This document shows, piece after piece, positions 9,380 through 9,768 of a stretch of 64,000 bases of DNA. Every line of letters begins with the position of its first letter. The stretch's first letter is position 1. The notes beneath the pieces were generated by a model. It had not been told where the DNA came from and did not search any database. It was given only the letters and a program-made list of their open reading frames with translations. The position numbers and the translations under genes were made by a program. Origin of the DNA: Escherichia coli (GTDB taxonomy: Bacteria > Pseudomonadota > Gammaproteobacteria > Enterobacterales > Enterobacteriaceae). Where the stretch lies: the NCBI RefSeq assembly GCF_013315695.1, contig NZ_CP054353.1; one strand, 5' to 3'.

Positions 9380-9768
9380 GGCATACCCTCACTCAATGCG
9401 TAACGATAATTCCCCTTACCTGAATATTTCATCATGACTAAACGGAACAACATGGGTCACCTAATGCGCCACTCTCGCAATTTTTCAGGCGGACTTACTA
9501 TCCCGTAAAGTGTTGTATAATTTGCCTGGAATTGTCTTAAAGTAAAGTAAATGTTGCGATATGTGAGTGAGCTTAAAACAAATATTTCGCTACAGGAGTA
9601 TCCTGGAAGATGTTCGCAGACATTATTTTCGGATAATCCTTAGGGTAGCATGATAAACGTTACGGAATTATATTAATGGTAATTCACTAATAATATCAGC
9701 CAGCAAATTAAAAATTTCACTGAATAAATGTTCGCAAAAAGGCGCAATTAACGGGTAATGACTCCAAC

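Follow-up and report, generated by a model that had tools for sequence, protein, structure and literature searches.

An IS1 element next to rcsA in Escherichia coli marks a deletion of about 15 kb that removes fliE-fliR and probably leaves rcsA control essentially native

IS1 and IS5 elements in the bgl or flhDC regulatory regions provide examples of how an IS can relieve H-NS silencing or activate a promoter. The rcsA locus analysed here is similar in that an IS lies upstream of an H-NS-silenced gene. However, in the bgl and flhDC cases the IS is located inside the silencer or regulatory region, whereas the present IS1 lies beyond the region sufficient for H-NS repression. The fli deletion of E. 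coli B is presumably another candidate for the closest relative; it was left out of the comparison. In the EAEC O104:H4 strain 1070/13, an IS1A-adjacent excision of about 14.5 kb truncates fliR and abolishes motility (PMC11950199). As in that strain, the deletion described below has an endpoint at a terminal inverted repeat of IS1A, leaves fliR truncated and falls in the same fliR/rcsA neighbourhood. However, the deletion in 1070/13 extends from fliR in the direction of rcsA and dcm, so that rcsA is lost and the final 64 aa of FliR are replaced, whereas the one described here runs the opposite way (from the 5' part of fliR to fliE and beyond) and spares rcsA together with its control region.

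The window, i.e. the whole stretch of 64,000 nucleotides that was analysed, maps one-to-one in its coordinates onto AF3, a UK blood culture isolate, and holds one IS1 only, at 9754-10521. This IS1 is very probably the scar of a deletion of about 15 kb, for which loss of flagella is predicted while rcsA control is expected to remain essentially native. Given the EAEC O104:H4 case and the recurrent IS1 events found at this locus, the event is of a kind already known, to which the window adds a further IS1 removal of flagellar genes. The features that define the element and its two junctions are the following.

9668..9753, minus strand: fliR remnant, last 28 codons and stop codon, with a translation equal to the K-12 FliR C-terminus
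9754..10521, minus strand: complete IS1, IS1A-like, exactly 768 bp, both terminal repeats present
9769-10272, minus strand: insB, 167-aa ORF
10191-10466, minus strand: insA, 91-aa ORF
10522..10716, minus strand: DNA downstream of the yedK stop codon, forming the right deletion junction, 100% identical to ATCC 11775 from locus position 26513
10717-11385, minus strand: yedK (annotation), with its stop codon 195 bp from IS1

The IS1 end beginning at 9754 is GGTAATGACTCCAACTTATTGAT and the end closing at 10521 is GGTGATGCTGCCAACTTACTGAT in reverse complement; GGTGATGCTGCCAACTTACTGAT and GGTAATGACTCCAACTTATTGAT correspond to the imperfect terminal inverted repeats of IS1 (about 23 bp). Read from its first base, the terminus opening at 9754 is GGTAATGACTCC..., and that at 10521 is the reverse complement of GGTGATGCTGCC... 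The full-end match is far beyond chance (0 matches in 100 shuffles). The A6C programmed -1 frameshift motif TTAAAAAAC can be read in the element, which PGAP annotates as an IS1A family transposase with programmed frameshift. Since insA and insB both lie on the minus strand, IS1 shares its reading direction with rcsA; its IRR (insB-proximal) end faces rcsA and its IRL end faces yedK. The position of the junction is ambiguous by 1 nt, a G being present in both flank and IS1. The initial annotation had placed the left end of IS1 at 9754, about 375 bp from the rcsA start codon, and these coordinates are right: the interval 9380-9753, which separates the rcsA ATG from IS1, measures 374 bp.

The extent of the deletion can be read from ATCC 11775. 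Window positions 6077-9754 are collinear with 7839-11514 of the ATCC 11775 locus, and 10522-12010 with 26513-28001; the 14,998 bp that separate the two flanks in ATCC 11775 are absent at the window locus. The missing interval includes, in order, most of fliR, fliQ, fliP, fliO, fliN, fliM, fliL, fliK, fliJ, fliI, fliH, fliG, fliF and fliE, followed by emrE, ybcL, ybcM and an OmpC-like porin gene. The deletion hits 14 flagellar genes (fliE, fliFGHIJK, fliLMNOPQ and most of fliR). This gene order is also found, with a variant island, in U13A, the closest relative on the rcsA side. On the rcsA side, the breakpoint falls within fliR coding DNA, 86-87 nt before the fliR stop codon, and PGAP marks the fliR remnant as an incomplete pseudogene. 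The fliR-rcsA intergenic region is kept whole (288 bp in the window versus 289 bp in K-12). Since this region is complete and the 3' end of fliR is also retained, IS1 truncates fliR and not the rcsA control DNA. The initial annotation proposed that IS1 truncates or replaces whatever lay further upstream of rcsA. DNA has indeed been replaced, but what was lost is flagellar, from fliR onward, and not the mapped rcsA control region.

No target-site duplication of 8-9 bp is present at IS1, the flanks ...GCAATTAACG and TGAGGTGGT... being unrelated. IS1 is therefore interpreted here as a deletion scar and not as a simple insertion. The most likely route is an insertion in fliR followed by an adjacent deletion, an order of events that we infer. 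IS1 would have inserted into the AT-rich 3' end of fliR, with CAATTAACG as the predicted 9-bp duplication of this precursor insertion. Intramolecular transposition from the IRL end (adjacent deletion) would then have removed about 15 kb, from the 3' end of fliR to a point 195 bp downstream of yedK. Junction-specific searches among 5,426 genomes found no same-lineage intermediate with IS1 at one junction.

The deletion could also result from homologous recombination between two IS1 copies in the same orientation, of which one lay in the fliR 3' end and the other downstream of yedK. The product would be the same and the absent target-site duplication fits equally well; moreover the genome is IS1-rich (at least 40 matching pieces, the median per genome being about 10-11), and other strains carry IS1 in the regions of both breakpoints. 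However, the junction searches turned up no genome with IS1 at the exact yedK-side junction or with both copies, and one-ended adjacent deletions are classical IS1 behaviour, as is also stated in PMC11950199. Recombination between two copies is consequently considered possible, if somewhat unlikely, and insertion in fliR followed by adjacent deletion is retained as the preferred route.

Both exact junctions occur at 100% identity in two of the 5,426 complete E. coli genomes, AF3 and MSB1_4I, the latter a human isolate. The genomes NZ_OZ547117.1 and NZ_LR898874.1 each contain at least 40 IS1-matching pieces, compared with the median of about 10-11 per genome, which suggests an IS1-expanded lineage. 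IS1 insertions and IS1-ended deletions also cluster independently in the AT-rich fliR 3' end/rcsA region of unrelated E. coli. The following cases come from a survey that covered the same-orientation events at this locus that the search could join; where given, IS1 coordinates refer to the named sequence.

C6 (L003, IS1 at 4057-4824): simple IS1 insertion 1 bp away, same orientation, 8-bp duplication, fli operon otherwise intact
L37 (L011, IS1 at 1753-2522): simple IS1 insertion 472 bp upstream of rcsA, same orientation, 9-bp duplication
LZYWN_4 (L008, IS1 at 1296-2063): IS1 insertion 15 bp upstream of the rcsA ATG, with duplication
STEC346 (L009, IS1 at 670-1437): IS1 in the rcsA 3' end
PEC240 (L010, IS1 at 1692-2459): duplication-less IS1 deletion from the fliR 3' end to fliZ
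TA8571 (L006, IS1 at 1883-2650): duplication-less IS1 deletion from inside rcsA toward yedK
TW10690: duplication-less IS1 deletion from ybcM

The fliR 3' end next to rcsA thus looks like a recurrent IS1 target, or hot spot. In LZYWN_4, IS1 truly separates rcsA from its promoter, the situation envisaged by the initial annotation, which does not apply to the window. A common origin of the window and C6 insertions was considered and rejected: the flank is 1 bp off and the surroundings are only 97.4% identical.

Since 14 basal body, C-ring and export apparatus genes are missing from the locus, the clone is predicted to lack flagella and to have no H antigen despite an intact fliC, and it would be non-motile. 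The locus thus predicts a non-motile phenotype for a rare clone that comprises the human blood isolate AF3 and the human isolate MSB1_4I. The other flagellar and chemotaxis genes of the window, located at 15128-20993 and 42483-49523, include fliDST, fliC (585 aa according to the annotation), fliAZ, flhDC, motAB, cheAW and tar. None of them carries a pseudogene flag, which suggests that the loss of fliE-fliR is recent. A link to motility through RcsAB repression of flhDC had been raised as a possibility from the position of IS1; this indirect route is moot because the flagellar structural genes themselves are gone.

The rcsA side of the junction carries the following features.

8034..8120, plus strand: DsrA small RNA, full length and intact (Rfam RF00014, 102.5 bits, E = 7e-20)
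8756..9379, minus strand: rcsA, intact, 207 aa (ORF list; PGAP: transcriptional regulator RcsA, WP_000103994.1)
9517..9546, minus strand: candidate rcsA promoter, TTTACT-18 bp-AATTAT (relaxed consensus scan)
9626..9629, minus strand: A4 run, directly adjoining the RcsAB box on its promoter-proximal side (A5 in all other strains compared)
9629..9642, minus strand: predicted RcsAB box TAAGGATTATCCGA (rcsA strand), -250..-263 from the ATG, identical in K-12 and all other strains aligned
9670..9687, minus strand: YdaT-binding / RcsAB box1 site TGAATTACCATTAATATA, overlapping the last fliR codons

RcsA of the window is identical to the K-12 protein at 205/207 positions (L70H and T195M differ), and the same rcsA allele is found in the unrelated strains C6 and LZYWN_4. 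DsrA, an H-NS anti-silencer for rcsA, is kept. The 374 bp upstream of rcsA are native and collinear from end to end in an alignment with K-12 MG1655, ATCC 11775, U13A, DA33135, C6, L37 and PEC240. The RcsAB box consensus reportedly reads TaAGaatatTCctA (Wehland and Bernhard 2000). The position of the predicted box in the window agrees with that of the rcsA operator fragment, -275..-247, used for Salmonella RcsB binding (PMC5758874). Further upstream, the YdaT site footprinted in K-12 reads 5'-TGAATTGCCATTAATATA-3' and precedes the transcription start site (TSS) of rcsA by about 170 bp (PMC11879457). The seventh base of this box1 is an A in the window versus a G in K-12. The A is common to U13A and DA33135, and the variant is synonymous in fliR.

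The distance of about 170 bp between box1 and the TSS would place the latter near 9500-9510 and IS1 at about -250. The position of the candidate promoter TTTACT-18 bp-AATTAT fits this distance (PMC11879457), and its assignment to rcsA, like that of the TSS, is putative and based on these sequence positions. It is also consistent with a 1-bp deletion at -144 from the rcsA ATG that swept in T7-selected K-12 (PMC10044975), since the deletion falls in the spacer of the candidate promoter. It would cut the TTTACT-AATTAT spacer to 17 bp, which may explain its selection as a promoter-up change.

When fused to lacZ, a fragment carrying -390..+51 of rcsA, numbered from the ATG, was activated by YdaT and strongly de-repressed in an hns hha mutant; it was sufficient for H-NS repression on the K-12 reporter plasmid and was also used for binding assays (PMC11879457). 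The window keeps -374..-1 of this fragment, and the distal 16 bp alone are replaced. The AT-rich core upstream of rcsA (-350..-151; 64-78% AT) is intact. The breakpoint is distal to all mapped rcsA control elements, at 111 bp from the RcsAB box and 66 bp from box1. The alignment of breakpoint, promoter and RcsAB box suggested by the initial annotation thus speaks against a disrupted upstream region, the rcsA regulatory DNA being essentially complete downstream of the IS1 end. Since rcsA, its promoter, the RcsAB operator(s), the AT-rich H-NS core and dsrA are all kept, control of rcsA is expected to be essentially native. The role of IS1 would be limited to that of a new neighbour upstream, about 250 bp away from the TSS, and rcsA expression is expected to be unchanged. 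For rcsA biology the result is mostly negative: the breakpoint spares almost exactly the fragment known for H-NS and RcsAB control. As this control fragment is nearly whole, no capsule phenotype is to be assumed from IS1 alone.

A change in rcsA expression at the IS1 junction, and hence in capsule (colanic acid) output, could arise by several routes: loss of distal H-NS-binding or curved DNA, IS1 read-through or outward transcription, or loss of fliL-operon read-through and of the fliPQR antisense interplay. IS1 has indeed taken the place of all DNA upstream of -374 relative to the ATG, which corresponds to about -250 relative to the TSS. According to curvature software, a curved and H-NS-prone stretch extends between -130 and -300/-400 upstream of the promoter of rcsA (PMC6070653); its distal part would be trimmed by IS1, located at about -250 from the TSS. 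However, this extent is a prediction only; the mapped elements are all kept at unchanged positions, the -390..+51 fragment loses only its distal 16 bp, and the intact AT-rich core is abutted by an IS1 end that is itself 56-60% AT.

With regard to transcription, yedK and the IS1 genes share the orientation of rcsA. The minus strand between yedK, IS1 and rcsA showed no intrinsic terminator, and read-through from yedEFK or insAB' toward rcsA is therefore possible on sequence grounds. The yedK-IS1 spacer folds as RNA with a stability no greater than that of shuffled sequence (z = 0.34), which gives no sign of a yedK terminator or a structured RNA in this spacer. However, the IS1 promoter is weak and repressed by InsA, and IS1 is strongly polar. 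The promoter-like site that IS1 itself carries in IRL (10514-10487, minus strand, consensus scan) is directed inward. Neither an outward-facing nor a hybrid -35/-10 promoter was found in the IRR end or across the junction by consensus match at 9/12 or at a relaxed 8/12, thresholds that weak promoters could escape. The view that IS1 brings outward-reading sequence close to the rcsA promoter thus holds for direction, which is that of rcsA, but not for a promoter in IRR or at the junction.

Two further observations favour an effect on rcsA. Small upstream cis changes were selected in phage and predator evolution experiments (PMC10044975, PMC8540638). In addition, Wang and Harshey 2009, to the extent that it is cited in PMC11950199, ties rcsA transcription to fliPQR antisense in Salmonella. 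Against the retention of all mapped control elements, an effect of the IS1 junction on rcsA expression is considered unlikely, and essentially native control remains the preferred reading.

The 374 bp retained upstream of rcsA differ from those of the nearest relatives U13A and DA33135 at two positions, both within 10 bp on the promoter-proximal side of the RcsAB box. One is an A-to-G change that is common to other strains. The other, A5-to-A4, is the sole private cis change of the region: an exact 76-mer carrying A4 is found in AF3 and MSB1_4I alone among the 5,426 genomes, and the next-best matches differ by the 1-bp indel only. With this private deletion adjoining the RcsAB box, control of rcsA may not be native in the strict sense. 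It might even be the change that matters for rcsA in place of IS1, by shifting the operator by one bp relative to the promoter. Its restriction to this lineage (2/5,426 genomes), and the selection of other 1-bp deletions upstream of rcsA in experiments (PMC10044975, PMC8540638), are in line with such a role. However, no neutral mutation is commoner than an indel in a homopolymer, and sequencing errors often take this form as well. The deletion selected experimentally, at -144, is located elsewhere, in the promoter spacer, and shifting the phase by 1 bp at about -115 from the TSS is not known to have any effect. The A5-to-A4 deletion may simply be neutral or a homopolymer error, and a regulatory role for it appears decidedly improbable.

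It can also be imagined that loss of flagella and altered capsule control arose together in this bloodstream-associated clone, with the trimmed curved DNA, the co-directional IS1/yedK transcription and the A4 deletion jointly resetting rcsA. If true, a single locus would couple flagella loss with altered exopolysaccharide regulation. This combination is more doubtful still than any effect of the A4 deletion by itself, and the preferred reading is again that of a flagellar deletion with rcsA control essentially native. Finally, although the many IS1 copies of the genome are a classic cause of misjoins, an assembly artefact, in which reads collapsed on multi-copy IS1 would have falsely joined rcsA to yedK, is hardly credible, since two independently produced complete assemblies from different countries show both junctions alike base for base and reference genomes carry the flanks as collinear neighbours, as a true deletion predicts.

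The two flanks of IS1 differ in their relationships. The left flank (6077-9754) is 97.7% identical to ATCC 11775, whereas the right flank (10522-12010) is 100% identical over 1.5 kb; the rcsA-side flank resembles U13A and DA33135 (99.5%) instead of ATCC 11775. These unequal identities point to a different ancestry of the two flanks and suggest a recombination mosaic around the deletion.

The junction with yedK has also brought together the IRL end of IS1 and new flanking DNA, which form a hairpin followed by a T-run at 10516-10530 on the plus strand (ATCACCTGAGGTGGT TTTATTT). It is the sole terminator-like structure at the junction. Made by the junction and pointing away from rcsA, it is probably fortuitous.

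On the other side of rcsA, window positions 1-6076 correspond to a prophage with baseplate, tail-fibre and invertase genes and a Mu-like terminus (...GCGCGGCGCATCA). The prophage abuts dgcQ near 6076/6077, and the coding sequence of dgcQ lacks about 745 nt at its start. With the loss of its 5' part, this cellulose-regulating diguanylate cyclase is a pseudogene in the window.
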